Below, piece after piece: positions 29,716 to 56,149 of a stretch of DNA of 64,000 nt (the stretch's first letter is position 1; each line of letters begins with the position of its first letter). The stretch is taken from NCBI GenBank assembly GCA_016931155.1, contig JAFGFJ010000006.1, forward strand, positions 314,896-378,895. Reading direction: 5' to 3'. The notes below the pieces were generated by a model. It was not told where the DNA came from. It saw nothing but the letters and a program-made list of their open reading frames with translations, and ran no database searches. Origin of the DNA: Candidatus Dojkabacteria bacterium (GTDB taxonomy: Bacteria; Patescibacteriota; Dojkabacteria; B142; JAFGFJ01). The position numbers were made by a program, and so were the translations under genes.

Positions 29716-30981
29716 ATGGAAAGACATTCAGTGCCCCAAAATATTATGGATGTCGAGTTCAAGCTTTTTGGAAGCCTGACCGTAAGACAGTTCGCTAACC
29801 TTGCAGGATCTATTGTCGTTGCGGTTATTTTATATTTTTTTAATATTCCCGGAATTATCAAATGGCCAGCAATCGTCGGTTTTGTTTTCTTGGGCATAAG
29901 TTTGGCACTGGTTAAGATAAATGGTCAAACATTTGGTACTTGGCTTGGCAATTTTCTGGCTTCTATGTTTAGTTCCCAGAGGAAAATATGGAAGAAAGAT
30001 CCGAAAGTTCCTGAGATACTTACAAAGACTTACCGTCCACGAGTAAGTAATGAACAGCTTGTTTCTGCGAAGAAAAAAGAGTTACCTCCTTTTCTACGTG
30101 AGGATATAATTCAATCTACAAACGTAGTAGATGAAGAGGAGGAAGAGCGGCTAAAGAAATTAGAAAAATACATTCTTGGTGGTACCTCTTCAACGATAAG
30201 TGAGCAATTAATTTCAGACGAAGAAAAAGCACAACGACCGGTAATAATTGATCCTTCAGATCAAAATCTTGCTGGCACAATGAATACGGCAAATGAGGAT
30301 AATTATTCTATAAATCAGTCGGACGAATTCGCAGTAATTGGAAAGAAGATGGCTAATCAGAGAGAGCGACCGATAAGCTCAAGACTTGTGCATAAGAACC
30401 TTGCGGAAAACATAGGAATTGCTGTAAGTGAAGATACTAAAGAGTCCGGTTTGGGCAAGGAAAAAGAAAAAAAGTCAGAAATAGGTTATCTTTCTGAGAA
30501 ACCTGTTAATGATATGAACAGAGGATTAGATGTGAAAAGGAGTTCTTCCGACGAATTGATAGAGGCTAATAAAATACTGCAGGAAAGGATACAGGAACTT
30601 ACAGAAAAAGCGAAAAAATCTCCTGATGACTCTCAGATAGCTCAAAAACTTGCAGAGATGGAAAAACGTCTGGTGGAAATTCAGTCGGGAGGTTCGTTCG
30701 CTAATGAAAAAATAGTATCTCAAAAACCAAATGTTATTAGTGGTATAGTAACTGATAAAGAAAATAAATTACTTCCTGATGTTAGGGTGTTGATTAAGGA
30801 CAGAAGGGGTTTTTTGGTTAGATCACTGATTACTGATAAGCAAGGTTACTTTGTTACGACAACTTCACTTCCTGACGGCGATTATTTAGTTGAATTTGAA
30901 AGCGATAGACATCCTTTTGACCAGTATAAAGTTAACCTGAACGGGTCTTTGAAAGATACGTATAAATTTACTGCCAGATGA
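29716..30981 (+). CDS. PrgI/VirB3-like membrane protein fused to a long coiled-coil and a C-terminal CarboxypepD_reg-like beta-sandwich domain
   Basis: N-terminal FKLFGSLTVRQFANL plus two TM helices resembles the PrgI family, which sits upstream of VirB4 in Gram-positive T4SS. The C-terminal ISGIVTDKENKLLPDVRVLIKDRRGFLVRSLITDKQGYFVTTTSLPDGDYLVEFE resembles the CarboxypepD_reg fold. Confidence 0.5.
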   Translation: MERHSVPQNIMDVEFKLFGSLTVRQFANLAGSIVVAVILYFFNIPGIIKWPAIVGFVFLGISLALVKINGQTFGTWLGNFLASMFSSQRKIWKKDPKVPEILTKTYRPRVSNEQLVSAKKKELPPFLREDIIQSTNVVDEEEEERLKKLEKYILGGTSSTISEQLISDEEKAQRPVIIDPSDQNLAGTMNTANEDNYSINQSDEFAVIGKKMANQRERPISSRLVHKNLAENIGIAVSEDTKESGLGKEKEKKSEIGYLSEKPVNDMNRGLDVKRSSSDELIEANKILQERIQELTEKAKKSPDDSQIAQKLAEMEKRLVEIQSGGSFANEKIVSQKPNVISGIVTDKENKLLPDVRVLIKDRRGFLVRSLITDKQGYFVTTTSLPDGDYLVEFESDRHPFDQYKVNLNGSLKDTYKFTAR

Positions 30982-31000
30982 TTTATCTTATTAGTTAATA

Positions 31001-31684
31001 ATGGCGTTTTTAGGAAGAAAAGAAACAACAACTCAGGAACATCTTGATATTGAGGATGTCAGAGATGATCTTGTTGTGTTAAAAAATGGTAACGTTTCTC
31101 TTGTTATGGAGACGACTTCTTTGAACTTTGATCTTCTTTCGGAAGAGGAACAGGATATACGAATTCTTGCCTTTGCAGGGCTTATGAACTCATTGAATTT
31201 CCCTGTACAGATAGTTGTTAGAACAGAAAGAACAGACGTAACTGATTATGTAGATAAGCTAAAGATCTATAAGGAAAAACAGATTTCGTTGGCCTTAAAA
31301 AGACAAATAGAGATTTACATGCAATTTATTAAGAATCTTACTGTGAACACCGAGGTTCTTGATAAAAGATTCTTTGTTGTTATACCAGGAATAATATCAA
31401 GTATACAAAGAACTAGTGCTGTGAGACAGATCTTCGGTAAACCAGTAAAAATTAAAAATATCGAGGAGGTGCTTGAAAAAGCCAAATTACTTCTTTATCC
31501 AAAACGTGATCATCTGCTGAAGCAGTTTCAAAAAATGGGGATAATTGCAGAGCAACTAAAAACTGATGATTTAATACGTTTGTATTACGGTATTTATCAA
31601 CCGGATACTCCTGGAATTAAGAAATTAATTTTGAAAAAACAGGATTTTTCTACTGGGATTGTAGAAACTTTAAAAGAAGAATAA
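31001..31684 (+). CDS. VirB4/TraC-family T4SS ATPase, N-terminal domain fragment (separate ORF)
   Basis: HLDIEDVRDDLVVLKNGNVSLVMETTSLNFDLLSEEEQDIRILAF matches the N-terminal block of Gram-positive VirB4 homologues (Tn916 Orf16/TcpF type). Confidence 0.6.
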   Translation: MAFLGRKETTTQEHLDIEDVRDDLVVLKNGNVSLVMETTSLNFDLLSEEEQDIRILAFAGLMNSLNFPVQIVVRTERTDVTDYVDKLKIYKEKQISLALKRQIEIYMQFIKNLTVNTEVLDKRFFVVIPGIISSIQRTSAVRQIFGKPVKIKNIEEVLEKAKLLLYPKRDHLLKQFQKMGIIAEQLKTDDLIRLYYGIYQPDTPGIKKLILKKQDFSTGIVETLKEE

Positions 31685-31688
31685 CAAT

Positions 31689-33635
31689 ATGTGGATATTT
31701 GGAAAAAGCAAAAAAGAAAAGGAAAAAGAGAAGGAACAGACAAGTCAGTCAGAGGATCTTGAAGAGAAGGCAATTGAAAAATTCGCTGAGGGATTGATTG
31801 ATGTAAAAGATCTGATAGCTCCGTCAGCGATGGAGGTGGATTTTAACGATGTTCTTGTAGGAAATAAGTACTTTAGAACTTTCCTTGCTACTGGATTTCC
31901 AAGCCATGTCGGACCAAATTGGCTTTCTCCACTTATCAATTTTGACTTTCCTGTAGATATAAGCACGTTTTATTATCCTGTGGATAGTTCAATGATAATG
32001 CAAAGACTCAAACGAAAGATTGGAGAAATGGAGGCAACAATCAGTCTTGATCTTGAAGCAGGAAAAGTGGTTGATCCATATGTTAAGGTTGCACTTGAAG
32101 ATGCAAAGAATTTACAGGAACAAATAGCAAAAGGTACAGAGAAATTTTTTCACTTTGCTCTTTATGTAACTATTCGAGCAGGCAGTATCAGGGAGCTTGA
32201 AAAAATCTCGAAGAATCTTATTTCAACAATGTCTTCTATTAGTGTGATTCTAAAGGTGGCTACTTTGCAGCAGGAACAAGGTTTTCAGAGTGTTGTACCT
32301 GTAGGAATAGACAAGATCTATATGACCAGAAATATGGATACGACCTCTTTGGCGACCACATTCCCATTCGTTAGCTCAGAGCTTACTATGGATACTGGTA
32401 TTTTGTACGGAATAAATAAACACAATAGAAGTCTTGTGATTTTTGACAGGTTTGAACTTGAAAATGCTAATGCAGTTGTTTTTGCAACTTCCGGGGCGGG
32501 AAAAAGTTATATGGTAAAGCTTGAGGCTATGAGAAGTCTTATGTTCGGGACTGAAATACTGATAATTGATCCCGAAAGAGAATATGAGAAGCTAACGAAA
32601 ACAATTGGAGGAGAATACGTATCGTTTTCGCAAGATGGCGCGCAAAAATTGAATCCATTTGAGCTTTCAGGAATTTATGACAAAGATGAAGACGAGCTAA
32701 GAATGAAAATTCTATCACTTCACGGCCTTATGAGGATTATGATGGGTGGAGATTTTTCTCCGGAAGAATCTGCAATACTTGATAGGGCACTTATTTTGAC
32801 GTATAAAGAAAAAGGCATTACGGTTGATCCTGTCACACACAAAAAAGAACCACCTCTTCTTGAGGATTTATATAAGATTCTCCAGGCAATGGCAGAGCCT
32901 CAAGCTCATAATCTTGCGACAAGACTTGAGAGGTTTGTAAGAGGAAGTGCAGCTGGTATTTTTGACAGAAAATCAAATATTGAGATTAAGAATACATTTA
33001 CTGTTTTTAGTATTCGAGAGTTGAGTGATGACCTAAGGCCTATAGCAATGTATATGATGCTTGATTTTATTTGGACAAGAGTGAAAAGACTTCGAAAGAA
33101 AAGACTTCTAATAGTGGATGAGGCATGGTGGATGATGCAGTATCCAGATGCAGCAAAATTTATCCACTCAATGGCAAAAAGAGCCAGAAAGTACGGTCTT
33201 GGGCTTACTACAATTACTCAAGATGTTGAGGACTTTTTGAGTACGGATTACGGGAAAGCTGTTGTTACAAATTCATCAATACAAATATTAATGAAGCAAA
33301 GTCCTGTAGCTATAGATAAGATTCAGAAGATATTCTATTTGTCTCAAGGTGAGAAGAACTATCTACTTTCAGCAGGTATTGGGGAAGGTCTATTCTTTGC
33401 CGGATCAAATCATGTGGCAATTCAGGTAATTGCGAGTGAAAATGAGCATAATCTAATAACTACATCTTATAAAGATATGGAGAAAGAGGAGAAGAAAAAA
33501 GCGGCATTGGCAGAAGAAGCTGTAAAAAATGCCGGAATTGGTATTGCAGATATTCCTGAAAATACAAACCAGCAAGTTTCCCCTACTGATAATATTAATT
33601 CCTATACTGGTAATACTTCTTCCAATGCGGTATAA
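31689..33635 (+). CDS. VirB4-like T4SS ATPase, central + C-terminal ATPase domains
   Basis: YFRTFLATGFPSHVGPNWLSPL middle-domain block; Walker A FATSGAGKSY; Walker B LLIVDEAWWMM. Confidence 0.8.
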   Translation: MWIFGKSKKEKEKEKEQTSQSEDLEEKAIEKFAEGLIDVKDLIAPSAMEVDFNDVLVGNKYFRTFLATGFPSHVGPNWLSPLINFDFPVDISTFYYPVDSSMIMQRLKRKIGEMEATISLDLEAGKVVDPYVKVALEDAKNLQEQIAKGTEKFFHFALYVTIRAGSIRELEKISKNLISTMSSISVILKVATLQQEQGFQSVVPVGIDKIYMTRNMDTTSLATTFPFVSSELTMDTGILYGINKHNRSLVIFDRFELENANAVVFATSGAGKSYMVKLEAMRSLMFGTEILIIDPEREYEKLTKTIGGEYVSFSQDGAQKLNPFELSGIYDKDEDELRMKILSLHGLMRIMMGGDFSPEESAILDRALILTYKEKGITVDPVTHKKEPPLLEDLYKILQAMAEPQAHNLATRLERFVRGSAAGIFDRKSNIEIKNTFTVFSIRELSDDLRPIAMYMMLDFIWTRVKRLRKKRLLIVDEAWWMMQYPDAAKFIHSMAKRARKYGLGLTTITQDVEDFLSTDYGKAVVTNSSIQILMKQSPVAIDKIQKIFYLSQGEKNYLLSAGIGEGLFFAGSNHVAIQVIASENEHNLITTSYKDMEKEEKKKAALAEEAVKNAGIGIADIPENTNQQVSPTDNINSYTGNTSSNAV

Positions 33636-34204: not shown

Positions 34205-34233
34205 TTCTTGTTTGTGCGTGCTATAATTATTTC

Positions 34234-34626
34234 GGTCTAGTCAGAACGGTCGCTAAGCGTGAGCTTAGAGGAAAGTCCGAACTCCTCTTGGCACAATAGT
34301 CAGGACAAGGTACCTTGGAGACAAGGCAGGGAGTGATCTCTGGGATTAGAGCAACAGAAAGTAAGGAGCCTGCGAATTGCAGGCGATCTTGAAAGGGTGC
34401 CTCCGGGTTTTTCTGGGGGGCGTACATGAAATTTCATGTATGACGTGTAAGAGACCACCGGTCACGATAGTAATATCGAGATGCTGGTAATCCCTATCGG
34501 GAGCAAGATCAAAGTGTAGATCGCAAAGTGTTTGTTCTTTTGATTAATCAGAACAAATACTGCTAGAGAAATGACCGTCATTCTGGTGTTGCCAGAAAGA
34601 ACAGAATTCGGCTTATTGACTAGACC
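34234..34626 (+). ncRNA. rnpB: RNase P RNA, bacterial type (M1 RNA)
   Basis: GAGGAAAGTCCGAACTCC (P4 5' strand) and ACAGAATTCGGCTTA (P4 3' strand) covary with the E. coli GGG/CCC pair. The P1 helix GGTCTAGTCA...TGACTAGACC closes the ~393-nt molecule. The ORF-track ORF 34227-34427 (-) is spurious. Confidence 0.85.
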
Positions 34627-34734
34627 ATTTTTTCAACCACTTCAGGAGTATTTCCATTTGGGTGCATAATACTTCCTGTATAGAAACCATTATTTCTTGA
34701 AAATTTCAATTTACAGTGGGAACACATAGATACA

Positions 34735-35433: not shown

Positions 35434-36162
35434 ATTTTACAAAAGTGTTATTGTACAAACTTTTTTGTCCGGTACTCATGAAGTAATAATAGAGATTAGG
35501 CAGACATGCTAGAAGATAAAAGGCAGGAAGGTATGTATGCCCCAATGTATACCAAATTTGATCAGATAATGATTGATATTGCAGTGTTTTGAATGGTACT
35601 AATATATGGACAAAAAATAGAGCAATGAATTGTAAGGCAATAAATAATATTATAATAATAGAAAGGCAAATTTTCAGTCAATAGTATCTTGGTAGTGATT
35701 ATGTGTTGTTGAAAATTTTCTTACTGTAACATAAAAATATTATATGATATTTAAAAACATTTAATTACGTTAATTAACCAATATTATAAGAAATACTGGT
35801 TAGAATTTGCTTTACAAGTAACAATATAATAACAATAGCTTACCAGTTGTTGGCTTATGTGCTATACGGTACTCTAAATAATCGGTACATTTGTATAATT
35901 GGACACTGTGGACAAGCAAGAATCGATAATTATGTCACACAAAATAGGCTCTAGTAAAGTTAGGGTCGGGATCTACTAAAACTGGTATTTAGTAAATATT
36001 CAATTTAGAGAAATAAAAATAGTAAGAATAAAAAAATTGTACAATAAGTCGGATAAGGCTACAATGGTGACTGATCCGCAAAATCAGGAATGTGTAACAA
36101 TAGGGTAACATAAGGGTGACTTATGAGTATAATAAATTGGGGAAAAATAAATAATGTGGTAT

Positions 36163-39141
36163 TTAGAAGGTTTTATGTTCTTTAGCATTGATTAGTCCGC
36201 ACTTCTTATATTTTAGACCGCTACCGCAAGGGCAAGGGTCATTTCTTCCGATTTTTAGTTTTGTGGTAGTATCCTGTTGTTTACCTCTCTGTAAATATTT
36301 CCCTTCTTTTTTTTGTTTGATTTTTAAATCATTAGGCTGTTGTTTTGTTTGCATTTCTCTATCTTCTATAAGTATATTCTCTATTTGTGAAATATTTGTG
36401 GATACGCTCTCCTGTGTTTTCTGTAATATCCTTTTAATCTTCAAAATTATTCTTGCAAAATTGGAGTCAACATTACCAATAAATTGTTCAAATAATAGGA
36501 ACCCTTCATTTTTGTATTCGACAAGTGGTTCTCTTTGAGCATATCCTCTAAGACCTATTCCTTGCCTGAGGTCTGTCATGCTATCGAGGTGTTCTGTCCA
36601 GCCGTGATCCATACTTTCAAGATAATAGTTTTTTACAATAAGGGGATAGTCTTTACCATATTCCTCAACTTTAACTCTCAACATTCTTCCAACCAAATCT
36701 TTAAGGTAGCTAGTTATCTCATTTAACTTTTTTCCTTCTATTTCCATTTCCAGGTACTCTCCAGCTTTTGTTGCATCAGTTAATTTCTTCTTTGTTGGAA
36801 TTTTAGTGACAAGCTCATCTTCGAATAAGTCCAGGAAATCCGCTATCACTTGTTTTCTGTCCAAATCATCACTTCTTTCAGGGATAAAGTGTTTATTAAC
36901 AATAAAGTCGACTTCTTCCTCCAATAACCTTTGTAATCTTTCGGTGAGCTTCATTGTTTTCTCCTTCGTCTTCAGTATTTCTTCTTTCTTGTACAATGCT
37001 GCAAGATGATCCGTTTCTTCCAAAATCGTTCTTCTCTTTTTGTAATAGATTTCTCTTTGCTTATTTACTACGTCATCATACTGAACAAGCTGCTTTCTTA
37101 CATCAAAATTTGTACCCTCCATCCGCTTTTGTGCGTTTTCAATTGCGCCACTTATCATTCCAGATTCAATGGGCATATCTTCAGGAATATTTGTCATTTC
37201 CATTAATTTTTGTACAATTGGACCGCCCTGTATTCTCATGATTTCATCGTCAAGTGCGACGTAAAACCTGGATACTCCAGGTTCGCCCTGTCGTCCTGAT
37301 CTTCCTCTGAGCTGATTGTCGATCCTTCTAGCTTCATGCCTTTCTGATCCAATTATCTGTAGTCCTCCTGTTTTAACGACCTCTTCAAACTCCTTATCTG
37401 TAGCATTGAATCCACCGAGTTTGATATCCGTTCCCCTACCAGCCATATTTGTTGCAACTGTTACTGCAGATTTCTTTCCTGCATTTGCGACTATGTTTGC
37501 TTCTCTTTCATGGTATTTTGCATTTAGTACTTCGTGATCTACTCCTTTTTTATCAAGGAGCCTTGACAGATATTCCGACTTTTCAATTGAAGTGGTTCCG
37601 ATAAGCACTGGTTGTCCGTCCTTGTTTTTTTCCGTTACTTCTTCTGCTATTGCATTGAATTTTGCTTCCTGGTTTTTGTAGACTCTGTCAGGCAGATCTT
37701 TTCTTATTATCGGCTTGTTTGTAGGTATGGAAAGTGAGTCTAGAGAATATATCTTAAAAAATTCTTCGGCCTCTGTCATGACTGTCCCTGATCCTCCTGA
37801 TAGCACTTTGTATAATCTAAAAAGATTTTGGAATGTAATCGTTGCGAGTGTCTTTGACTCTCTTTTTATCTCCACTCCTTCTTTTGCTTCTATGGCTTGA
37901 TGAAGACCTTCTGAATATCTCCTGCCGGCTAGAACTCTTCCGGTAAATTCGTCAACTATCATGACTTCACCATCTCTAACCAGGTAATGATCATCCAATT
38001 TGTATAAGGTTTCAGCCTTCAGGGCATTCTCAAGATGGTGTGCCAATCTATAATCTTCCCATATGTTTTTTACTCCAAGCAATTTTTCTGCTTTTTCAAT
38101 CCCTTCATCAGTTAAAACAGATGAGTGTGCTTTTTCATCCAAAACATAGTGTCGCTCGGGTTCTAGATTCTTTACAAGTTTTGCAAATTTGATATAAAGT
38201 TCGTTTGATTGTTCAGCTGGGGCAGAAATTATCAGGGGAGTTCGTGCTTCGTCTACAAGAATAGAGTCGGCCTCGTCAACAATGCAAAAGTACAGTTCTC
38301 CCTGAACAATGTCTTCAGTAGTTCGTACCATATTGTCTCTGAGATAATCAAAGCCAAACTCATTATTTGTTCCATAAATCACATCACACTTATATGCTTC
38401 CTGTTTTGATACCTCAAGGAGATTTAGACCATCTGAGTCTCCAGGGTTCATTACCTTTATTTTTTTTCTTTGCTTATACGCTTCTTCATTTTTGAATTCC
38501 TTTATCTGCTCATCAGTAATATATTTGTAGGATTTCTCAGGTGTAATTACTCCTACGCTAAATCCCAACTCAGAGAGAATGTGACCTGCGTATTCACCAT
38601 CTCTTTTTGCAAGATAATCGTTTACAGTGACAACATGTGATCCTCTTCCGGTAAGACTGTATAAGGCTGCAGGCATCTGAAAAACGAGAGTTTTTCCTTC
38701 TCCGGTTTTCAGCTCTACTAACTTAAAACCTTGTGCAAGAATCGCACTGGCCAGAAGCTGAACATCAAACTGTCTAATAAATTTTTTTCCTTTACGCATT
38801 TTTCTTTTGGACACCTCTCTAATCATTGCGTAAACTTCAGGAAGAAATTCAAGCAATTTATCTTGTATGGCTTTTTCGTATTGAGGCATATCTTTTCCTT
38901 TTTCCGGAGTTTTTATTGACATTTTGTCTTCTGAAGGCACTTTTTCTACTAAAGTGTTCAATTCATTTCTTATTGTATCAAGCCTTTTTTGGAAGGATTT
39001 GATGTCTTTTTTTTCGAAATCTGGTTCAAGAGAATTAATTTTCTCGACAATGGGCCACGCAGCTTTTATCTGCTTTTCATTAGAGTCGAAAAATTTTGAA
39101 AAAATATTCAGGAACATTTGTGGAATTAAATCAAACATCAT
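36163..39141 (-). CDS. secA: Preprotein translocase ATPase SecA (with C-terminal zinc-binding CPCGSG...KKCG tail)
   Basis: DEAD-like motor blocks (LKTGEGKTLV, VDEADSILVDEARTPLIIS) and canonical C-terminal Zn finger. Confidence 0.95.
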   Translation of the reverse strand: MMFDLIPQMFLNIFSKFFDSNEKQIKAAWPIVEKINSLEPDFEKKDIKSFQKRLDTIRNELNTLVEKVPSEDKMSIKTPEKGKDMPQYEKAIQDKLLEFLPEVYAMIREVSKRKMRKGKKFIRQFDVQLLASAILAQGFKLVELKTGEGKTLVFQMPAALYSLTGRGSHVVTVNDYLAKRDGEYAGHILSELGFSVGVITPEKSYKYITDEQIKEFKNEEAYKQRKKIKVMNPGDSDGLNLLEVSKQEAYKCDVIYGTNNEFGFDYLRDNMVRTTEDIVQGELYFCIVDEADSILVDEARTPLIISAPAEQSNELYIKFAKLVKNLEPERHYVLDEKAHSSVLTDEGIEKAEKLLGVKNIWEDYRLAHHLENALKAETLYKLDDHYLVRDGEVMIVDEFTGRVLAGRRYSEGLHQAIEAKEGVEIKRESKTLATITFQNLFRLYKVLSGGSGTVMTEAEEFFKIYSLDSLSIPTNKPIIRKDLPDRVYKNQEAKFNAIAEEVTEKNKDGQPVLIGTTSIEKSEYLSRLLDKKGVDHEVLNAKYHEREANIVANAGKKSAVTVATNMAGRGTDIKLGGFNATDKEFEEVVKTGGLQIIGSERHEARRIDNQLRGRSGRQGEPGVSRFYVALDDEIMRIQGGPIVQKLMEMTNIPEDMPIESGMISGAIENAQKRMEGTNFDVRKQLVQYDDVVNKQREIYYKKRRTILEETDHLAALYKKEEILKTKEKTMKLTERLQRLLEEEVDFIVNKHFIPERSDDLDRKQVIADFLDLFEDELVTKIPTKKKLTDATKAGEYLEMEIEGKKLNEITSYLKDLVGRMLRVKVEEYGKDYPLIVKNYYLESMDHGWTEHLDSMTDLRQGIGLRGYAQREPLVEYKNEGFLLFEQFIGNVDSNFARIILKIKRILQKTQESVSTNISQIENILIEDREMQTKQQPNDLKIKQKKEGKYLQRGKQQDTTTKLKIGRNDPCPCGSGLKYKKCGLINAKEHKTF

Positions 39142-39274
39142 GATAGCACAAAAAGCAAATTCCGCGGGAAATTTATTTAAGTTAATAGCAGTATAAATCT
39201 TGTTAATTTAAGATCAGTTTTGGATTTTCTACAAATTTAAGGATTGTCATGAAAAAGTGGAGAGGTGACTCTGT

Positions 39275-40033
39275 CTAGAGTTCCAAAGCAATTACCACAA
39301 TTCTGTTGTCACTTCCCCCGGGTACTCCTGATTGAAGTGAACAGGATATTATCTTGATAAAGTTTCGTTTTGATGTTTCGTAAATATTTACGTCGTTCGG
39401 ATTTTTTATTGTGACACTCCGAACTGAGTATCTTATTGGCTTTCCTGATGGATCATTTACCTGAATTAGATCACCCTTTTCTAGAAGATTTATATTCCAG
39501 CAACTTCTTGGGTCATCTTGTTGAAAGTATCTTCTGTGGCATAGTACTATTGTTTCACCGTTTCCAGGAGTACTGGAAGATGGATACATCCAAAATCCTT
39601 GATCCATTAGAGAATCACCATCGCTTCCCCCGAACACATTTGCTCTCACATTTATTTTTGGAATGATTAACTCTCCAATTACTCCTGTTGTAACTTTGGT
39701 ATCGAATGCAAACTTTTGTTGCTCAGGCGAGAGAATATCATCTCTTGTATATATTTTCTCTTTATTCAATTGACTGTCTTGAGCAGTGGAAGTATCTTCT
39801 GTACTGCTTTTTTGTTTCTCTTCTTCCACCTTCTTAACCTCTGACATTGAAGGAACTAAAAAATTATATCCGTACTTCTGCCTACCATTTTCTCCTTTTA
39901 AAAATACTGAAATAAGGCTTATATGTGTTGTTCTTGCCTTTGTGTATAGAAAAAGTCCGCTAACAATAAGAAAGCTTAGTATAAACAAAATAAAAATCAC
40001 CTTTGTTGTTGAATCTTTTTCCTCGTTTTCCAT
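39275..40033 (-). CDS. Sortase-family transpeptidase (N-terminal TM anchor)
   Basis: His (VLCHRRYF), Cys (FIKIISCS in place of LTLITC) and downstream Arg (DNRIVVIA) in sortase-like spacing. Confidence 0.6.
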   Translation of the reverse strand: MENEEKDSTTKVIFILFILSFLIVSGLFLYTKARTTHISLISVFLKGENGRQKYGYNFLVPSMSEVKKVEEEKQKSSTEDTSTAQDSQLNKEKIYTRDDILSPEQQKFAFDTKVTTGVIGELIIPKINVRANVFGGSDGDSLMDQGFWMYPSSSTPGNGETIVLCHRRYFQQDDPRSCWNINLLEKGDLIQVNDPSGKPIRYSVRSVTIKNPNDVNIYETSKRNFIKIISCSLQSGVPGGSDNRIVVIALEL

Positions 40034-40105
40034 TCCGAATTATATCACAGGAAACTATTGTAGTTATATATTTAATATTGTTCAAAACGCTAATACGATG
40101 ATATA

Positions 40106-41092
40106 ATGCATTATTCCAATATAAAAACAATGAGGAAGGAATTTGATGAGAAAAAAGTGAGGCTGGCTCTGATGGTTTGGGGATTTATGGTTATCCTTAT
40201 TGGGCTTATTATTGGAATTGTGACGGTTGGACCACAGCTTACTCCGCTTGAGGCACAAGGACAGATTTGCACGACTGGTGCAGATTGTCCTCCTTGTGAA
40301 TATCCACAGGTAGCTTTCTGCGACCATAGCGGATCTTCCAATCCTTGTCGTTCAGGAGAGGGTATATGTACATGTAGAGGCGTACCTCAAAGTGACCCAA
40401 CTTGTGGAGGTGCTGTTTGTATCTCAATTTCTCCGAGTGAGGCATGTGATCCTGGTGGGTGTCCTTCGGGTTACACTGACTGCGGGATAAGTGGTCACAG
40501 AACTGATAATTCTTCAGAATGTCAAGCTTTTGGCAGTTGTACTACTAGATGTGCTTCGTGTAATAACCCAACTACATTTGTTAGATATTGCAGACCGGAA
40601 GTTTCACCTGTTGAACCATCACCGTCACCGTCACCGTCACCATCACCGTCGCCCTCCTACCCAGACTATGAAATAGTAAAGGATGTTATTGACTCAGATA
40701 GTTTTTACGAAATAGGGGAGACTGTGAACTTTAGTGTTACAATCAGAAATACAGGGGATGTAACATTTGAAAAGGTAAAATTTAGGGATGTGTACAATCC
40801 TGCACGATTGGATTATCTATCTAGTCGTGGTAATAAAAATGGTGGCACAGACGTAGAGTTAAATTTCAATATTATTGAAAGTACTGGAATTATAACTCAT
40901 TCAAACCTTGCGGTAGAGTTGGGAAATTTGAATCCTGGGGATTACTATCGAATATTTTTTAGCTTTAGAGCTTTGGTAAGTGTTCCGAGAACATGCAACG
41001 AAGCCTTTGTTAATCCTGATGATTTGGGTGAGAAAAGGGACGATGCTTGTGTCTCGATTAATACTGTGTTTATTCCCGTACCTGATTTATAA
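40106..41092 (+). CDS. Secreted/membrane-anchored Cys-rich protein with (SP)n linker and C-terminal DUF11-like beta-sandwich domain
   Basis: N-terminal TM; ~22 Cys within ~120 aa; PSPSPSPSPSPSPS; C-terminal YEIGETVNFSVTIRNTGDVTFEKVKFRDVYNPARLDYLS resembles the DUF11 conserved repeat domain. Confidence 0.55.
   Translation: MHYSNIKTMRKEFDEKKVRLALMVWGFMVILIGLIIGIVTVGPQLTPLEAQGQICTTGADCPPCEYPQVAFCDHSGSSNPCRSGEGICTCRGVPQSDPTCGGAVCISISPSEACDPGGCPSGYTDCGISGHRTDNSSECQAFGSCTTRCASCNNPTTFVRYCRPEVSPVEPSPSPSPSPSPSPSYPDYEIVKDVIDSDSFYEIGETVNFSVTIRNTGDVTFEKVKFRDVYNPARLDYLSSRGNKNGGTDVELNFNIIESTGIITHSNLAVELGNLNPGDYYRIFFSFRALVSVPRTCNEAFVNPDDLGEKRDDACVSINTVFIPVPDL
40616..40654 (+). repeat. Hexanucleotide tandem repeat (TCACCG/TCACCA)n encoding the (Ser-Pro)n linker
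   Basis: ccatcaccgtcaccgtcaccgtcaccatcaccgtcgccc read directly. Confidence 0.8.
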
Positions 41093-41682: not shown

Positions 41683-42507
41683 CTAACTTGATAGTCCTTG
41701 CAGGATAACTAGACTTAATAGCAATACAACGAGATATTCCAGTAACACCTCTTTTTTCAAAGAACCTTCGAGTTTGTGATGAAGAATTGCACTCGTAATA
41801 TAGAAAACCAGTAGGGTGTATGAGGAAGTCGCAAGAATCGAAAAGTTCGTATACGAGCTTAACGCAACTACTGTTTCAATAATTACTAAAGTGGTAATTA
41901 GATTGAAAATAATAGTTAAATAATTGAACTGATTTCTTCTTATCGTGACAATAGTATTGATCATGAATGCTGTCATTCCAATAAGAACGTAAGAAAGAAA
42001 AGGATCAAAACCAAAGTAATTTATAGTTTCAAGAATTGTGTTTGTAAGCTGGAAAAAAGTGATAAATTTGATAATGTCATATATGTAATGAGTTCTTTCT
42101 TCCAATTTGAATTTGTCTTCATAATATGCCCTGATATTAATGAACATTAATGTAAATATGAAAAAGCAAATAAAGAAGAAGAAATACTTGGGAAGTGTCA
42201 GGTGGTAGTAATATATTATTCCCAAGCAAGACATATATAGAGCAGTAGGCAGTAATAAGTGATGTGTAAATTGACTGAATTTAGAATAGGTATCAACCTG
42301 TGGTATTTCCATTTGAGCCAGGATTTTTTTTGAGTATATTTGGCTTGTCAGTACCTCGAAAACAAATACCAGATAAAGGATTATGCTTGCGATGAAGAAT
42401 AATTTTTGTTCCAGATTTATCATGAGCTCAACAAGAAATATGAGACCGATTGAGATGAAAAAACCGTAAAAGATTCCTCTTCTATTGTTTATTAAAAAGT
42501 TCTTCAT
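41683..42507 (-). CDS. Hypothetical polytopic membrane protein
   Basis: 274 aa, ~8 predicted TM helices; start overlaps the stop of the upstream CAP-domain gene (ATGA). Confidence 0.5.
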   Translation of the reverse strand: MKNFLINNRRGIFYGFFISIGLIFLVELMINLEQKLFFIASIILYLVFVFEVLTSQIYSKKILAQMEIPQVDTYSKFSQFTHHLLLPTALYMSCLGIIYYYHLTLPKYFFFFICFFIFTLMFINIRAYYEDKFKLEERTHYIYDIIKFITFFQLTNTILETINYFGFDPFLSYVLIGMTAFMINTIVTIRRNQFNYLTIIFNLITTLVIIETVVALSSYTNFSILATSSYTLLVFYITSAILHHKLEGSLKKEVLLEYLVVLLLSLVILQGLSS

Positions 42508-43952
42508 TTTGTTAACCCTTCAATTATCGTCCCACCTGCTCCTCCAATAAGTACCATCAAAAGCAGAACAATGAAATTTGAAATATGCAAATGATGCTTC
42601 CCTCTTTCTTTATAGCCCAGGGGAAGATTTGTCCTGGCAAGGAGTAGGGCATCAAAAACAAAGAGTGAGACTATAATGAGAAGTGCAGTAATACTTACAA
42701 CATTTTTTACGCTTGGAAACTCTCGAGCAATAATACTTATCAGTTTATTTGTTGCGATTTCTTTTGAGGAAAGAGTTTCCATTGTACTCAATACATTTCC
42801 TGTTTCAATGGTTGAAGATGTGATGTTTCCAGCTTTGTCAATCGCAGTAATTGCTAGCGTGTTAGAAGATTCAGTAATGGGTCTTGCTATGTCTACTTCC
42901 CAGTAATCAGAATAAGGTATGCGAACAAAATTTTTCTCTTCTTCGTTACTGTATAGATATACTTTTTCGGTGTCATCGGAAATAAGTATTCTGAGACGAT
43001 AATTATCAATATTTTCTGTTGACAATATTTCTAACAAATCTGTGTTTATTACTGGTGCTTGAGTGTCTACAACTACGCTAACTATACTTGATTTTTCGCT
43101 GGAAACCCCATGCTCGTCTATGGAATATGAAGATATCAAATGATTCCCCTGTTCAAAAGGTTTGTCTGATGGTGGCTTGTATATAAAGATACCCCCTTGT
43201 GCATCAATATCAGCAATGTTTTTTTCATTGTCAATTATTTTTACTTTTGTTTCCTTTTTTGCTCGACCTCTTATCGTGAAAAATTGATCGTTTGTCCAGG
43301 TACCATTCTCAGGCTCTTCAATTAAGGGGGTATTTTGAATGTCATTTGTTGGAAGTGCTTCTTTCACCTGATGTTTTGAATCACTTGTTATTGGAAGCGC
43401 ATTATAGGAGTTAACTTGAGAGCCGAAATGAACGACAACTACTACATTATTGGGGTTTCCCTGGAAGTTACCCTGAACAATGGAAATACCTATCTCTCTG
43501 AACTCTGGTTTCAGCATATTATCTCTATGACTGGGACTATTCATCCATGCCTGTACTACAGCTTCGTTATCATTAAAACCTTCTGCAAGGTTCTCTCCTG
43601 CATAAATATATTCATAATTCTGATCCTTGAAAAAATCCCAAGGCGATTTCTTATCGGGACAATAGTGAGACCAGCAGTCAGAAGCAAGCATTGCTTTAGC
43701 TTTTTCTGACGCAGAATTAGTCAGTTTGCTGCTAACTACTAATTTCGAAAGTCCTCTGCTGGTTCTTTCTTTATTATGAAGGCTGACAAGTATGGAAGTA
43801 TCGATCGCTGCGTAAGCTTTAGATATCGGTAAGCTTCCCACAGTAATATTAAAAATGAAGAGGATTAGAGTAAAAATGGCTAGACTTCCTTTTCTCAGAA
43901 GAAGTGGATAGTAATTATTTGTTTTAGTAGGAATGAATAAGTTTTTGATCAC
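42504..43952 (-). CDS. Membrane-anchored CAP/SCP/PR-1 domain protein with ~250-aa extracellular extension and C-terminal TM helices
   Basis: CAP blocks HNKERTSRGLSKL, GENLAEG, AVVQAWMNSPSHRDNML; N-terminal signal/TM and two C-terminal hydrophobic helices. Confidence 0.65.
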   Translation of the reverse strand: MIKNLFIPTKTNNYYPLLLRKGSLAIFTLILFIFNITVGSLPISKAYAAIDTSILVSLHNKERTSRGLSKLVVSSKLTNSASEKAKAMLASDCWSHYCPDKKSPWDFFKDQNYEYIYAGENLAEGFNDNEAVVQAWMNSPSHRDNMLKPEFREIGISIVQGNFQGNPNNVVVVVHFGSQVNSYNALPITSDSKHQVKEALPTNDIQNTPLIEEPENGTWTNDQFFTIRGRAKKETKVKIIDNEKNIADIDAQGGIFIYKPPSDKPFEQGNHLISSYSIDEHGVSSEKSSIVSVVVDTQAPVINTDLLEILSTENIDNYRLRILISDDTEKVYLYSNEEEKNFVRIPYSDYWEVDIARPITESSNTLAITAIDKAGNITSSTIETGNVLSTMETLSSKEIATNKLISIIAREFPSVKNVVSITALLIIVSLFVFDALLLARTNLPLGYKERGKHHLHISNFIVLLLMVLIGGAGGTIIEGLTK

Positions 43953-44018: not shown

Positions 44019-45572
44019 ATGATTGTTAGAACAAGATTTGCTCCAAGTCCGACAGGATACGCTCATTTGGGCTTTGTGAGTAGAGTCCTTATTAATTATG
44101 CAATGGCCAGAAAACATGGCGGGAAGTTTGTATGGAGAAATGAGGACACTGATAGAGAAAGGTTTGTTGAAGGATCTCTAGAGTTTAATATGAGATGGAT
44201 GAGGGAGTTTGGACTTGATTGGGATGAGGGACCGGATATAGGTGGATCTTATGCGCCTTACAACCAAAGTGAAAGATTAGATATCTATAAGAATGCGGCG
44301 GAAAAACTTATTGAGAAAGGTTACGCTTACAGATGTTTTTGTTCAAAAGAAAGACTTTCAGAAATGAGAGAAGAACAGGAAAAAAAGAAGGAGAGAAAAC
44401 ACTACGATGGCCTTTGCAGAAATATATCTGCCAGTGAGATAGAAAGTAATTTAAAAAAGAGTATTGCATACACGGTAAGGGTAAAAATGCCAAGAGATAG
44501 AAAAATAGAATTTGACGATATCATTACACGCACTCATATTACTTGGAATTCAAATGAAGTTGATGATTATATTCTTTTAAAATCTGATGGTTATCCAACT
44601 TATCACCTTGCTGCAGTTGTTGATGATGCTGCAATGGAAATTTCACACGTTTTTAGAGGTTCAGAGTGGATTGCTACAACTCCAGTGCATCAAATAATTT
44701 ATGAAGGTCTTGGTATTACAGAAAAGGAGAGGCCGGGTATTGGTCATTTTACTGTTATTTTGGATCCTTCAACTCCTGGGAAAAAGTTTAGCAAGAGGAG
44801 TAGCTCTTTTAAGGCAAATGGACTTGTGATACAAGGTTATTTAAAACCTGCAATACTTAATTATCTAATGCTTCTTGGATGGGCACCAAAAGATGACAGA
44901 GAGCTTTTTACACTAAAGGAGTTTGTGGAAGCATTTGATCTTTCAGGGATGCAGAAAGCAAATCCAACCTGGGATCAAAATAAAATGGATTGGTTCAATG
45001 GTATTTATATTCGTGCACTTTCCCCAGATAATTTGATAAAGGAATTCACAAACTGGATTACTAATTACCTTTTTAAGGAGCCGGCTGAGGATGTTAAAGA
45101 GAATCTTACCAGTGCTGATCTTGACGTGAAGAGAGTTAATGAATTGTTAGATCTTGCAAGAGTAATTAAAGACTCAGACAGAGATGCTTTAAAATGCCAG
45201 CTTTTACTTACTCAGGAAAGATCTATAAATTTCTGGCATACACTAAGTCAAATAGAATTTTTCTATAGAAGACCTGAAAAAATCGATTGGCAAATTAAGC
45301 AGTTAAATAAAATAAAGGAAAACTTGGAGGAGATCAAATTAGATCTAATTAGTATGTATAGTTCTATGGATGATAATTCTTCAAAGTGGATGCACGCAAA
45401 ATGGGAGAAAGATATCCGTAGACTAGGGGATAAGTATAGGAAAAAACATGGTGATATTTTTATGCTGCTTAGAGTGTCTATTACAGGTGGACCATTTTCT
45501 CCTCCGCTTTTTGAATCTTCGCAGATACTGGGAAAAGAAGAGTGTCTAATAAGACTTAAAAATAATAAATGA
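44019..45572 (+). CDS. gltX: Glutamyl-tRNA synthetase
   Basis: RFAPSPTGYAHLG (HIGH-class motif) and KFSKRS (KMSKS), class I GluRS architecture. Confidence 0.9.
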   Translation: MIVRTRFAPSPTGYAHLGFVSRVLINYAMARKHGGKFVWRNEDTDRERFVEGSLEFNMRWMREFGLDWDEGPDIGGSYAPYNQSERLDIYKNAAEKLIEKGYAYRCFCSKERLSEMREEQEKKKERKHYDGLCRNISASEIESNLKKSIAYTVRVKMPRDRKIEFDDIITRTHITWNSNEVDDYILLKSDGYPTYHLAAVVDDAAMEISHVFRGSEWIATTPVHQIIYEGLGITEKERPGIGHFTVILDPSTPGKKFSKRSSSFKANGLVIQGYLKPAILNYLMLLGWAPKDDRELFTLKEFVEAFDLSGMQKANPTWDQNKMDWFNGIYIRALSPDNLIKEFTNWITNYLFKEPAEDVKENLTSADLDVKRVNELLDLARVIKDSDRDALKCQLLLTQERSINFWHTLSQIEFFYRRPEKIDWQIKQLNKIKENLEEIKLDLISMYSSMDDNSSKWMHAKWEKDIRRLGDKYRKKHGDIFMLLRVSITGGPFSPPLFESSQILGKEECLIRLKNNK

Positions 45573-47299
45573 TATCTTTGAAAATCTTCAAGATTTTTCT
45601 TTTTACAAATTTCTTTTTATTGTTTTCCTTTTTCTTAGGTGGACATAGTACATCTGCTGCATCTTTTTCCCAGGAATTCTCAAGTATTTACACAATAAAT
45701 AGTGATCTTTCTGCGAATGTGACCTTTAGGGAAGTATTTGTAAACATTTCTTCGACTGAAGTTCTTGATCGTTACAAGGTAAATATTCCTTTTGCAGATG
45801 CAACTGATATAAGTGTTAAGGTAAATGGATCGGGGACAATTTCTGGTCATAAGGTGACAGGTGGAAGAACTGAAGTAAGTGTGGATTTTGATCCTGTTAT
45901 TAAAGATCAGACAGCAGTTATTCTTACTTCTTTTAAGACATATCAAGTTGCCAAAGACTTTGGAGGGATAACTGCTTTACTTATCCCTTCAGTGGATTCA
46001 GGGGTAAAGATTAGTAATCAGGCAGTAAATGTTTCAAAGTCACTGGGAGAGTTGAGTTGTGCTTCTACTGACTTTACAAAGGGGAAGGAAACGAAGCAAA
46101 ATATTTACAATTTCAACTCTTCTTCTAATATATACATGACTTTTGGGAATAGTGTGAAATACAATTTCAGCTTAAAACAGTCCTTAATTAACAATACCAG
46201 CAAAGAGGTTACAACAAAATTCCTGCTTCCATATGAAGATTCAAGGCAGTCATTATATTTTTACTTTTCCAATTATGATGCGGTTCTGGTCTCTGATGGG
46301 AGTAACAATAAGGAGATATTTGTGTCATTAAAACCTACGGAAAATAAAAGTATTGGAATAAATGGACTGCTAAGTTCGAAAAATACGGATCGGGAGATCG
46401 TTGAAAGCAAGGTAAAAGATATTTACAAAAAGGTAATAAGTGAGCATTCTCCATCTTCCGACTCCAGATTTGAAAGAAAGTCGATTGGAGAATTGAAAGA
46501 ACAGAAGTCACTTAGTGAGATTCAGTATGCAGATCTATTGGTTTCTCTTCTAAAGGAGAAGAATATTGATGCAAAAATAATTATTGGCAGAAACAATGGT
46601 GCTCGAATGTTTGGTCGCAGTGAGGACATTGATGCTTGGGTTTCCTACTTTGATGAATCATCAAAGAACTGGCAAGGTCTTGATCCATATTTTGCTGATT
46701 CGAACAATCTTGGAGACGAACCCTTTTTTAATCCAGACAGGATAGCATATTTTGTTTTAGATGGTTCTAAAGCCGAGGAATCTTATGGGTATTACTTCCT
46801 TGAAGGACAAGGGTTCTATGTTGAGCTTTCGAAATATGATGGGGACGAATTTTTGATCGACAAGTCTTTTGATTACACTGTTACTATTGATCCTATTGAC
46901 AAGGTGTCACTTGATGTTCATTTTCCTGTTTCCATAAAACTGGCAAATCGTTCTTCAAGGGCAATTAGAATAAAAGATGCTCATTATAAGGGCAAAAAAC
47001 TGGAAATAAGAGCCAGAGATAAGAATTTATGGGTTCTTCCCGGGCATTCGGCAAGATATCAAATTGAAGGGCTTATGGTAAAAGGTCTTTTTGGAGAAAA
47101 AAAACAAACATTTGAACTTTCTTTAAGTATTGAGTCAGCGGGGGGAGAAATACAGAATCAGGAAAAAAGTATCGAAATAACTGCACTTCCGACTGTTAGG
47201 ACTTTCCTTCCGTTGATGGTTGCCCTGACTGTACTTTCAGTGAGTTTTTTCTTGTTTCTCATGTTTAAGAAACATATAAAATTGACACATAAGCGATGA
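45569..47299 (+). CDS. Secreted, C-terminally anchored protein with a degenerate (catalytically inactive) transglutaminase-like core
   Basis: Signal peptide. YADLLVSLLKEKNIDAKIIIG...DAWVSYFDESSKNWQGLDP matches the transglutaminase-like fold but the Cys and His positions are occupied by other residues. Ends with ALPTVRT + hydrophobic helix + KKHIKLTHKR. Confidence 0.45.
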   Translation: MISLKIFKIFLFTNFFLLFSFFLGGHSTSAASFSQEFSSIYTINSDLSANVTFREVFVNISSTEVLDRYKVNIPFADATDISVKVNGSGTISGHKVTGGRTEVSVDFDPVIKDQTAVILTSFKTYQVAKDFGGITALLIPSVDSGVKISNQAVNVSKSLGELSCASTDFTKGKETKQNIYNFNSSSNIYMTFGNSVKYNFSLKQSLINNTSKEVTTKFLLPYEDSRQSLYFYFSNYDAVLVSDGSNNKEIFVSLKPTENKSIGINGLLSSKNTDREIVESKVKDIYKKVISEHSPSSDSRFERKSIGELKEQKSLSEIQYADLLVSLLKEKNIDAKIIIGRNNGARMFGRSEDIDAWVSYFDESSKNWQGLDPYFADSNNLGDEPFFNPDRIAYFVLDGSKAEESYGYYFLEGQGFYVELSKYDGDEFLIDKSFDYTVTIDPIDKVSLDVHFPVSIKLANRSSRAIRIKDAHYKGKKLEIRARDKNLWVLPGHSARYQIEGLMVKGLFGEKKQTFELSLSIESAGGEIQNQEKSIEITALPTVRTFLPLMVALTVLSVSFFLFLMFKKHIKLTHKR

Positions 47300-54020: not shown

Positions 54021-54095
54021 TGGAGCGGGCAACGGGAATCGAACCCGTATCATCAGTTTGGAAAACTGACATAATAACCTTTATACGATGCCCGC
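54021..54095 (-). tRNA. tRNA-Gly (anticodon UCC), CCA encoded
   Basis: Reverse complement GCGGGCATCGTATAAAGGTTATTATGTCAGTTTTCCAAACTGATGATACGGGTTCGATTCCCGTTGCCCGCTCCA folds as a cloverleaf. 7-bp acceptor stem; anticodon stem TCAGT/ACTGA with loop TTTCCAA, so anticodon UCC; T-loop GGTTCGATTCC; discriminator U and G1:C72 typical of tRNA-Gly. Confidence 0.8.
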
Positions 54096-54240: not shown

Positions 54241-54312
54241 TGAGTAGCTATCTCCGAAGCACTTCAAGTCTCTGTGCATGAGTAGCTCTTCCCGCAGCAC
54301 TTCAAATTCCTG
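54241..54312. repeat. Imperfect 34-bp tandem direct repeat spanning the 3' end/stop codon of the downstream hypothetical gene
   Basis: tgagtagctatctccgaagcacttcaagtctctg followed by tgagtagctcttcccgcagcacttcaaattcctg. The second copy encodes the C-terminal ...LKCCGKSYSC; the first lies just beyond the stop. Confidence 0.7.
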
Positions 54313-55538: not shown

Positions 55539-56149
55539 TTCATTTCAGAAACGAGCAGTGTTGAAGAATTAATTTTCATGGCTTTCTGCTCGGAAAGATA
55601 AAATAATCTTGGCTGGTTTTCTGGCTTTTCCAGTGATGGAATTACAGTTGCGGCACAGCAGCGGTATTTCACCGCTTTTCCCATTTAATCCCGAAAAGAG
55701 AACCTGAAATATACTAGAGTAAAAATTATAATTTTGCAAGAAGTGTAGGTCTGATGTATTTGATGTACAACTTCAAGACCTATGTAGCAACTGAGACTCT
55801 ACGGGCTGTACAGGTTCATGAACATATGCAACAGCCATAGTAGAATACGTTGATGTTTCAAATTATTAATGATTCAAACAAAACGGTTGTTGTATAACGA
55901 GTTTAATCTTTAATATGTTTCATCACACGATAGAGAAGGCGAGTAAAATCAGCTTATTTTTTTCATTAACTGTAGAGACTCTTACAGAGAGCCAAGGATA
56001 AACTAGATGCTTGTTATGTATTATATGTAAGACAAGCAAACTCTCAATGAAGGAAGTAGTAGAGACCACGGCTAAGTTTTGCTCATCATTATTGTTGATC
56101 TTTTGCCAAATGAATTGTACTCTGTATTAGTCAGATTCCTGCCCTAATT

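Follow-up and report, generated by a model that had tools for sequence, protein, structure and literature searches.

A sortase subfamily of Candidatus Dojkabacteria with a conserved CLIPPER-domain partner protein and a candidate sorting signal that has no membrane segment

Class C sortases, such as SrtC1 of Actinomyces oris (2XWG) and SrtC1 of Streptococcus agalactiae (3TBE), are the best structure and Protein Data Bank (PDB) sequence matches of a sortase encoded in the stretch of DNA analysed here, a 64-kb piece of a Candidatus Dojkabacteria contig (JAFGFJ010000006.1, positions 314,896 to 378,895; referred to below as the window). In this window the sortase gene lies between secA and a divergent gene for a probably secreted, cysteine-rich protein that we call protein X. 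Candidatus Dojkabacteria, formerly WS6, belong to the Candidate Phyla Radiation (CPR); the window has a G+C content of about 36% and includes a long ribosomal-protein operon. The window sortase shares with the class C enzymes the eight-stranded barrel, the His-Cys-Arg triad, the membrane anchor and the location of its gene beside one for a surface protein with an immunoglobulin (Ig)-like domain of isopeptide type, which in X is predicted. It differs from them in a sequence identity of only 16-21%, in its score with the class C hidden Markov model (HMM; 34.5 bits versus a cut-off of 160), in having no DP[F/W/Y] lid motif, and in possessing an extra covarying Cys pair, an HRR sequence instead of GHRG and a [DN]YNF motif. 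Its partner X, unlike the class C partners, has no canonical cell-wall sorting signal.

A second kind of system pairs one specialised sortase with one neighbouring non-LPXTG substrate, as in the class B pair SrtB-IsdC (NPQTN), in class D, and in the class GN 'marine' sortases (TIGR03784) with their adjacent target. The locus in the window may resemble these dedicated pairs; its sortase falls far under the class D and class GN cut-offs. The targets in these pairs also retain a hydrophobic segment and a basic tail, whereas the candidate signal of X ends one residue past its Asp. For X itself, the nearest described relatives are the CLIPPER stalk domains of adhesins (9IFR; PMC12617251), with which it has in common the Pfam match, Lys, Asp and Asn at the predicted isopeptide positions, a predicted late-domain disulfide, a putative N-terminal signal peptide and, in its larger homologues, tandem repeats. 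CLIPPER adhesins carry these domains as tandem repeats in mid-protein, whereas window X has a single copy at the extreme C-terminus, and this copy is followed by no LPXTG, Por_secre_tail or other sorting domain.

Sortases have been recorded in the CPR before. Meheust et al. (2019) reported the sortase family fam000526 from over half of the CPR genomes, with an almost universal presence in Microgenomates (PMC6744442). That work reports presence and absence only and describes no substrate, motif, disulfide or gene partner; the window sortase very probably belongs to fam000526. The Pam pili of CPR bacteria (bioRxiv 10.64898/2026.03.03.709456) offer a likeness to X as CPR-specific surface filaments of Ig fold that have Sec signal peptides and cysteines in pairs. 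We considered this system as an explanation for the locus and rejected it, since Pam pili are assembled by donor-strand exchange with chaperones, involve no sortase and lie in an unrelated operon context (ATP synthase, CorB).

The locus is laid out as follows.

36163-39141, minus strand: secA, 992 aa, same direction as the sortase gene and directly downstream of it
39142-39274, minus strand: spacer between the sortase gene and secA, 133 nt
39275-40033, minus strand: sortase gene, 252 aa, with an N-terminal membrane anchor, a low-complexity linker and a C-terminal catalytic domain
40034-40105: divergent intergenic region between the sortase gene and the X gene, 72 nt
40106-41092, plus strand: protein X, open reading frame (ORF) of 328 aa, a putatively secreted Cys-rich CLIPPER-domain protein resembling adhesins and the conserved partner of the sortase

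An earlier note, made by reading the sequence without database searches, had described a sortase-like ORF, secA and a Cys-rich ORF at these places, and all three match the ORF map of the window; the distances it gave, 133 nt between sortase and secA and 72 nt between sortase and X, are both exact.

The 252-aa product matches the Pfam family Sortase (PF04203) over aa 123-249 with 57.5 bits against a cut-off of 26.6, and is 100% identical to an NCBI protein annotated 'sortase [Candidatus Dojkabacteria bacterium]'. The following features were located in its gene.

39941-40000, minus strand: membrane anchor, aa 12-31, VIFILFILSFLIVSGLFLYT, within a hydrophobic helix (H8-35) of the AlphaFold2 (AF2) model; orthologues keep the anchor
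39851-39871, minus strand: juxtamembrane GYNFLVP motif, aa 55-61, corresponding to the subfamily signature [DN]YNFx[IV]P
39278-39685, minus strand: catalytic domain, aa 117-252
39536-39538, minus strand: catalytic His166
39341-39343, minus strand: catalytic Cys231
39302-39304, minus strand: catalytic Arg244
39539-39541 and 39500-39502, minus strand: Cys165 and Cys178, predicted disulfide pair
39530-39535, minus strand: Arg167-Arg168

All PDB sequence matches were sortases. Their alignments set the CHRR and the ISCS of the query against, respectively, GHRG and TLxTC in the class C enzymes, and His166 and Cys231 are aligned with the catalytic His and Cys of the class C sortases 2XWG and 24RR. 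His166, Cys231 and Arg244 are invariant across the four closest homologues, and the triad is intact in the window sortase and in all 16 related-locus sortases examined, 14 of which are X-linked. The AF2 model made with a 55-sequence alignment, used in place of a 4-sequence model (predicted local distance difference test, pLDDT, 57) that was set aside, reached a pLDDT above 95 over aa ~121-252, with a helix at 8-35 and another at 103-111 (PEQQKFAFD) before the barrel. Foldseek returned 128 PDB matches to this model at E <= 0.001, and all 50 of the matches listed are sortases, the best being class C (2XWG, E 4e-12, probability 1.0), followed by classes D, A and E, at 14-23% identity. The HMM score, the catalytic triad and the predicted fold all mark ORF 39275-40033 as a sortase, in line with the sortase-like transpeptidase of the earlier note; the HMM match and the complete triad, whose absence would have refuted that note, are both present. 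We propose that the enzyme is catalytically competent and anchored in the membrane by its N-terminus. Its catalytic-Cys region does read FIKIISCS; this had been called atypical, and the departure is only a mild, conservative one, Ser replacing Thr at position -1 of TLxTC, in a subfamily where I(T/S)C(T/S/A/H) is found and both the Thr and the Ser form are used.

The classification into classes A-F that had been suggested as a check gave no class model at or above its own cut-off. With the NCBIfam models the window sortase scored 45.7 bits for SrtD (cut-off 140), 36.8 for class D (165), 29.9 for class GN (158), 24.5 for class E (160) and 22 for class F (166), in addition to the class C value given above, and the subfamily of 55 members is also under every NCBIfam class cut-off, with a best class E-value of 3e-18. 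The class C lid motif DPF, DPW or DPY was not found in aa 32-116. The window sortase and its subfamily are outside the curated classes A-F, and in fold the window sortase is nearest to class C and class D enzymes.

Searching 1.84 billion representative proteins with a profile yielded 1093 matches with an E-value of 1e-3 or less, 156 with 1e-10 or less and 33 with 1e-30 or less, and the features of the subfamily were drawn from an alignment (A4) of the best 55 matches. In the stretch that joins the membrane anchor to the catalytic domain these sequences carry, just outside the membrane, the [DN]YNFx[IV]P motif, in which Y56 and F58 are nearly invariant. The motif is often duplicated (L010, L012, L016, L017, L018), and we also observed that it has no known counterpart among classified sortases. 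The catalytic His sits within LLCHRRYFGxxDPRSCW, where Arg167 is invariant and Arg168 nearly so, and where class C enzymes have Gly. Positions 165 and 178 covary perfectly, being Cys/Cys in 42 of the 55 sequences and G/F, G/A or A/A in the remaining 13, and we infer from this covariation a disulfide that would brace the His loop. All taxa of the subfamily so far are CPR: Dojkabacteria, one 'Doudnabacteria' metagenome-assembled genome (MAG) and one Saccharibacteria MAG. A scan of GTDB genomes with a 4-sequence sortase alignment gave no match and a metagenome scan with the same alignment gave only an already known 1.2-kb contig, while a genome scan with a 20-sequence subset gave 5 loci.

Ten of the 55 sequences (P0014, P0038, P0040, P0052-P0057 and P0059) have lost the catalytic Cys and show S, A, F, T, N or V in its place, and six of these have lost the His as well (now Q, M, N or Y). 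They still have the Cys165/Cys178 pair and Arg244, and they are probably pseudo-sortases. The existence of such pseudo-enzymes would allow the window ORF to be a degenerate, non-catalytic homologue too, an idea that we find barely credible given that the window protein and all 16 related-locus sortases retain His, Cys and Arg.

Sixteen loci with available DNA carry a sortase of this subfamily, the window included, and a further locus, P0169, is without DNA. An X-type protein adjoins the sortase in 14 of the 16, and the P0169 locus shows the same gene pattern, in spite of sortases that are only 30-56% identical to that of the window. The arrangements are these.

X divergent, sortase then secA co-directional: window, L001, L002, L006, L008, L009, L011, L013 and the P0169 locus (no DNA)
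X divergent, sortase followed by ftsW: L007, L017 and L018 (directly), L014 (after two intervening genes)
ftsW, then an unrelated gene, sortase and X in one common direction: L015
two sortases in tandem, then X (1664 aa) and secA, all in the same direction: L016
no X within 10 kb: L010 (Saccharibacteria MAG) and L012

X orthologues in a position like that of the window occur in L001, L002, L006-L009, L011, L013 and L014, and X-type proteins are also found beside the sortase in L015-L018. Only the sortase remains beside X through all four gene arrangements. X genes are in tandem in L009 and L013, and sortase genes in L016. Across the Dojkabacteria the whole block gltX-CAP-DUF5656-LigT-X-srt-secA-Zn_peptidase is syntenic.

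The last residues of X, NTVFIPVPDL, followed by a TAA stop, form the candidate minimal sorting signal, and the longer C-terminal stretch of window X is ...SINTVFIPVPDL.

41060-41092, plus strand: extreme C-terminus of X (NTVFIPVPDL and TAA stop)

The C-terminus reads [T/P]-D-[L/I/M/K]-COOH in each of the 16 X proteins, TD[LIMK] in 13 and PDL in three (window, L001, L002), and the Asp at -2 is invariant. The tails include ...ERPPITDL, ...NQPPPTDM, ...LPPDTDI, ...NNISTDL and ...DVPDTDK, so that a Pro-rich spacer differing in length and sequence comes ahead of a fixed terminal tripeptide. In 13 of the 16 this takes the form x-P-x-T-D, or a looser Pro-rich stretch and then T-D; in the window clade the sequence is P-(V/P)-P-D, a Thr being absent from that position. 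The pattern [TP]D[LIMVK] at the C-terminus, searched for in the 258 non-overlapping ORFs of at least 100 aa of these loci, was found in the 16 X proteins and in none of the other 242; about 0.4 matches would be expected by chance from amino-acid frequencies. The tail sits past the last conserved strand and Cys, and L018 keeps it although its last domain has lost the Cys pair. Read-through or recoding that would supply a hidden hydrophobic tail was ruled out, as in 16 of 16 cases the stop codon (TAA in 14, TAG in 2) is followed by further in-frame stops. Canonical LPXTG-type substrates were not found in the 64-kb window or in ~215 kb of related loci (14 loci), and the earlier remark that X has no LPXTG is confirmed.

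The X tail looks like a sortase signal cut back to its pentapeptide and one further residue, and outside the window clade it is LPxTD-like in its Pro, Thr and Asp. Thr-Asp junctions also occur in sorting signals of the LPQTxE type of Lactobacillus plantarum. The expression LP.T[GAND], which covers LPxTD, is among those taken as sortase motifs in one study (PMC12617251). When the locus sortases were compared, no residue that tracks Thr or Pro in the X tail was evident. A Thr is found 7-9 residues from the C-terminus in the X proteins of the window, L001 and L002.

In its overall build X resembles the sortase substrates of Gram-positive bacteria, with a putative signal peptide, a stalk domain of predicted isopeptide type and a Pro-rich stretch ahead of the tail.

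40163-40228, plus strand: N-terminal hydrophobic segment, aa 20-41 (22 aa), followed by PLEA|QG; signal peptide or signal anchor
40268-40591, plus strand: Cys-rich module, 17 Cys in 108 aa (aa 55-162), hypervariable among orthologues
40616-40657, plus strand: (PS)7 linker, PSPSPSPSPSPSPS, aa 171-184; poly-Pro, DPP or TP-rich at the same place in orthologues
40661-41059, plus strand: C-terminal CLIPPER (formerly DUF11) domain, PF01345
40679-40681, 40787-40789 and 40997-40999, plus strand: Lys192, Asp228 and Asn298, the predicted isopeptide triad within the CLIPPER domain

The start of X is more probably Met9 (40130), giving 320 aa, as indicated by the starts of orthologues and by a 320-aa gene call on an overlapping Logan contig that has the same sortase. 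In 15 of the 16 X proteins a basic n-region and a hydrophobic core of 16-26 aa are followed by an (A/V)-x-A-like site, and these N-termini look like cleavable Sec signal peptides, in which case X would be left unanchored unless its C-terminus became attached. The region ahead of the CLIPPER domain is hypervariable, with Cys-rich modules that differ in length and sequence, and the Cys-rich module of window X has no Pfam or NCBIfam match. The description of a Cys-rich neighbour with a linker and a DUF11-like domain was correct in its architecture, while the count of about 22 Cys in 120 aa was too high, X having 19 Cys in total and 17 of them in 108 aa. We noted separately that the X heads of L007, L015 and L017 share the sequence WGG(I/V)(D/N)xxAMVxxAAxANPGxQ(Y/F)MAWC(D/N)xxTGQxSAxTxxxGxCxCP; this module belongs to the X heads of one lineage, is absent in window X, and may be a candidate binding domain.

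The C-terminal 140 aa of window X match PF01345 (DUF11) marginally, with 27.2 bits against 24.6, and also DUF7507, and for other X homologues the PF01345 scores are 31.2 (L015), 87.4 (L016) and 112 bits (L018). A 2025 study renamed DUF11 and DUF7507 CLIPPER and CLIPPER_2, and its crystal structure 9IFR shows a CnaA-like domain with an Asp-catalysed intramolecular Lys-Asn isopeptide bond; such domains are typical of the stalks of fibrillar adhesins, often with disulfides (PMC12617251). Among 14 aligned X sequences the positions of Lys192 and Asp228 are invariant and that of Asn298 is kept in 13, and in a weak profile alignment to 9IFR (E 1.5) the X Lys falls on chain residue 10 (K715) and the X Asn on residue 101 (N806), the numbering offset being constant. 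These positions are consistent with an isopeptide bond in the CLIPPER domain of X. The Cys297-Cys315 pair, a presumed disulfide, is present in all 14 aligned sequences, and only L018 has lost it. The large X homologues (1371 and 1664 aa) have 4-6 CLIPPER repeats, one of them with an added cohesin domain, and the X protein of L018 matches the model 'isopeptide-forming domain-containing fimbrial protein' with 91.6 bits (cut-off 30). A PDB search with the sequence of one X domain returned noise only.

Taking these results together, we propose with moderate confidence that X is a dedicated substrate of the sortase, recognised by a truncated, LPxTD-like signal that contains no membrane segment. X would be exported by the Sec system as an adhesin- or pilin-like protein, its head variable and rich in disulfides and joined by a Pro/Ser/Thr linker to the CLIPPER domain at the C-terminus, and the membrane-anchored sortase would catch the tail of the newly exported protein. 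Cys231 might then attack the bond after the Thr of the tail, giving a thioester at that Thr and releasing the last two residues, Asp and a hydrophobic one, and X would be passed on to an amine, for which a peptidoglycan precursor is the most likely acceptor. Perhaps Arg167 and Arg168, which lie beside His166, read the Asp of the tail and its terminal carboxylate. The outcome would be a conserved CLIPPER domain fixed at the wall with the variable Cys-rich head facing outwards. The earlier note had left open whether the neighbour is held by an N-terminal transmembrane (TM) segment or is a non-canonical substrate, and the evidence leans towards the substrate, from the pairing through four arrangements and the tail without a TM segment that is specific to the neighbour.

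Several observations count against this proposal. X has neither a hydrophobic segment nor a basic tail, and only one residue follows the Asp, while to our knowledge every characterised sortase signal has both elements after its motif. The window clade (window, L001, L002) has Pro at -3, so that the canonical acyl-donor Thr is absent. Much of the sortase-X pairing stems from the one Dojkabacteria syntenic block, and adjacency can arise from shared regulation of envelope genes instead of an enzyme-substrate relation; two members of the family (L010, L012) have no neighbouring X, and L014-L018 are Logan contigs that may not be taxonomically independent. A database search with the alignment of the X C-terminal domain gave zero matches, not even to the L001 protein in the collection. 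It is possible, if somewhat doubtful, that the two genes are neighbours and nothing else, with X secreted or held by its N-terminal TM segment and untouched by the sortase, the envelope genes being co-regulated or inherited as the gltX-to-Zn_peptidase block, and the terminal tripeptide serving to fold the last CLIPPER strand or to bind some other reader, for example of PDZ type or on a host surface. Besides the block, the missing retention signal and the PDL ending, the long N-terminal hydrophobic segment of window X (22 aa) fits this explanation, as does T-D-L-COOH, which we take to agree formally with a class I PDZ ligand. It accounts less well for the survival of the X-sortase pair where the block is lost or rearranged (L015-L018) and for a tail set off from the last conserved strand and Cys by a spacer that differs in length, and no PDZ protein or alternative reader recurs in the neighbourhood of X.

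If the sortase instead served ordinary substrates with tripartite signals elsewhere in the genome, X would be unrelated or an occasional substrate. We consider this unlikely, although our scan of this genome took in 64 kb and the genome measures at least 560 kb, which leaves room for such substrates. The only window ORF with a C-terminal motif, a TM segment and a basic tail, a possible sorting signal of conventional layout, is 45569-47299 (plus strand). Its 576-aa product has a signal peptide and matches the transglutaminase core weakly (E 3e-4, under the threshold). At the C-terminus ALPTVRTFLPL is followed by a hydrophobic segment and then by KKHIKLTHKR, and the L001 orthologue, only 43% identical overall, keeps the LPT(V/I)RTFLPL sequence as ALPTIRTFLPL with a TM segment and a basic tail. 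However, LPT(V/I)R does not figure among the known sortase motifs, lacks a small residue after Thr in the LPXTG register and was seen in two sequences only, the gene is not kept beside the sortase in L006-L018, and sortase-free C-terminal TM anchors have been described for CPR pilus-assembly proteins (bioRxiv 10.64898/2026.03.03.709456). More improbable still, as a special case of the dedicated-substrate proposal, is a polymerising sortase that would join X subunits into a covalent pilus-like fibre, the carbonyl of the tail Thr being linked to a Lys or to the new N-terminus of the next subunit. The best structural matches are indeed pilin-polymerising class C sortases, X has a CnaA-like isopeptide-type domain as Gram-positive pilins do, its large homologues match the fimbrial isopeptide-domain model, and at some loci X genes (L009, L013) or sortase genes (L016) stand in tandem. 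The class C lid motif DP[FWY] and a recognisable YPKN pilin motif are nonetheless absent, the class C HMM scores are far under the cut-off, and the sole invariant Lys of X is expected to be spent in the intramolecular isopeptide bond.

The other neighbour of the sortase, secA, has the expected Pfam set (SecA_DEAD 314.9, P-loop_SecA 257, SecA_SW 160.3, SecA_PP_bind 131.1 and SEC-C 33.3 bits) and is 54-77% identical to the sortase-linked secA of L001, L002, L006, L008 and L009. Sortase and secA are adjacent and co-directional in 9 loci, with spacers of 35-166 nt in 8 of them and of 605 nt in L001, where an ORF is called on the opposite strand; secA directly follows X in L016, and in other lineages ftsW replaces it beside the sortase. 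On the minus strand of the 133-nt spacer we found neither a terminator-like hairpin nor a promoter-like site, and co-transcription of sortase and secA is therefore plausible. The co-expression suggested in the earlier note is in this way strengthened as to conserved co-directional adjacency, while co-transcription itself is plausible only. X and the sortase diverge across only 72 nt, so that 40034-40105 must contain both promoters, and a promoter-like TTGAAC-17-TACAAT occurs there on the minus strand at 40085-40057; read by eye, a TGnTATAAT-like element may also lie 5 nt upstream of the sortase ATG. The adjacency to secA, or to ftsW elsewhere, would correspond to a conserved neighbourhood for secretion and wall assembly, probably with co-transcription. 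In streptococci the secretion and sortase machineries co-localise at the septum (PMC3676364).

Downstream of secA lies an AT-rich stretch of 730 nt (35434-36162) with no ORF above 45 aa and no Rfam match; spacers of similar size (730-946 nt) follow secA in L001 and L002, and their sequence is not conserved. On the other side of X, a protein that combines a CAP/YkwD domain, a Big_13 Ig domain and, at its C-terminus, two TM segments (42504-43952, minus strand) is followed by a DUF5656-like polytopic membrane protein (41683-42507, minus strand), and both genes are kept beside LigT and X throughout the Dojkabacteria loci. A gene for a DsbA/thioredoxin-like oxidoreductase is found a few genes downstream of sortase-secA in L013 (14279-14917) and in the P0169 locus, which fits the disulfide needs of X and the sortase; no equivalent was identified in the scanned part of the window. 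A protein O-mannosyltransferase (PMT, PMT_4TMC, PMT_2) is encoded at 24027-25316 (plus strand) and could glycosylate the Ser/Thr/Pro-rich linkers of X. The window further contains a type IV secretion-like cluster at 29716-33635 (plus strand), syntenic with L011 and made up of a PrgI-family gene (29716-30981), a gene for a 227-aa protein (31001-31684) whose L011 counterpart is weakly TraC-like, and a VirB4/TraG-type ATPase gene (31689-33635). RNA genes and elements comprise a bacterial class A RNase P RNA at 34233-34631 (plus strand; 134 bits versus a gathering score of 100), which is overlapped on the opposite strand by a spurious ORF of 66 aa, a cobalamin riboswitch at 55594-55722 (minus strand, 60.1 bits) upstream of a 424-aa ORF (54264-55538, minus strand), and a tRNA-Gly(UCC) gene at 54021-54095 (minus strand).

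That the window encodes an annotated sortase, and that a sortase family is recorded in the CPR, is already known. Within the searchable literature, which only mentions the presence of sortases in the CPR and in which we identified no substrate for them, three things appear to be new: the HRR/disulfide subfamily as defined here, the stable association of its sortases with a CLIPPER adhesin, and the [T/P]-D-hydrophobic C-terminal signature, without a TM segment, of that adhesin. Reading further, we put forward only tentatively that P-x-(T/P)-D-hydrophobic-COOH, with no membrane segment, is a new kind of sortase signal in CPR bacteria of the Dojkabacteria/Doudnabacteria type, by which a disulfide-braced HRR-type sortase anchors a hypervariable CLIPPER adhesin to the wall or polymerises it, probably for contact with a host.

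The locus bears on how the ultra-small episymbionts of the CPR build their surface. Should the two genes be neighbours and no more, the annotated sortase and the surface protein beside it would both be of an ordinary kind. If they encode an enzyme and its substrate, sortase signals could do without the hydrophobic and basic retention segment that has been supposed to be obligatory, and a leaving group of two residues might be of interest to protein-ligation technology. For the Dojkabacteria themselves, a hypervariable adhesin stabilised by disulfides and probably by isopeptide bonds would then be a main surface determinant and thus a candidate for host recognition.

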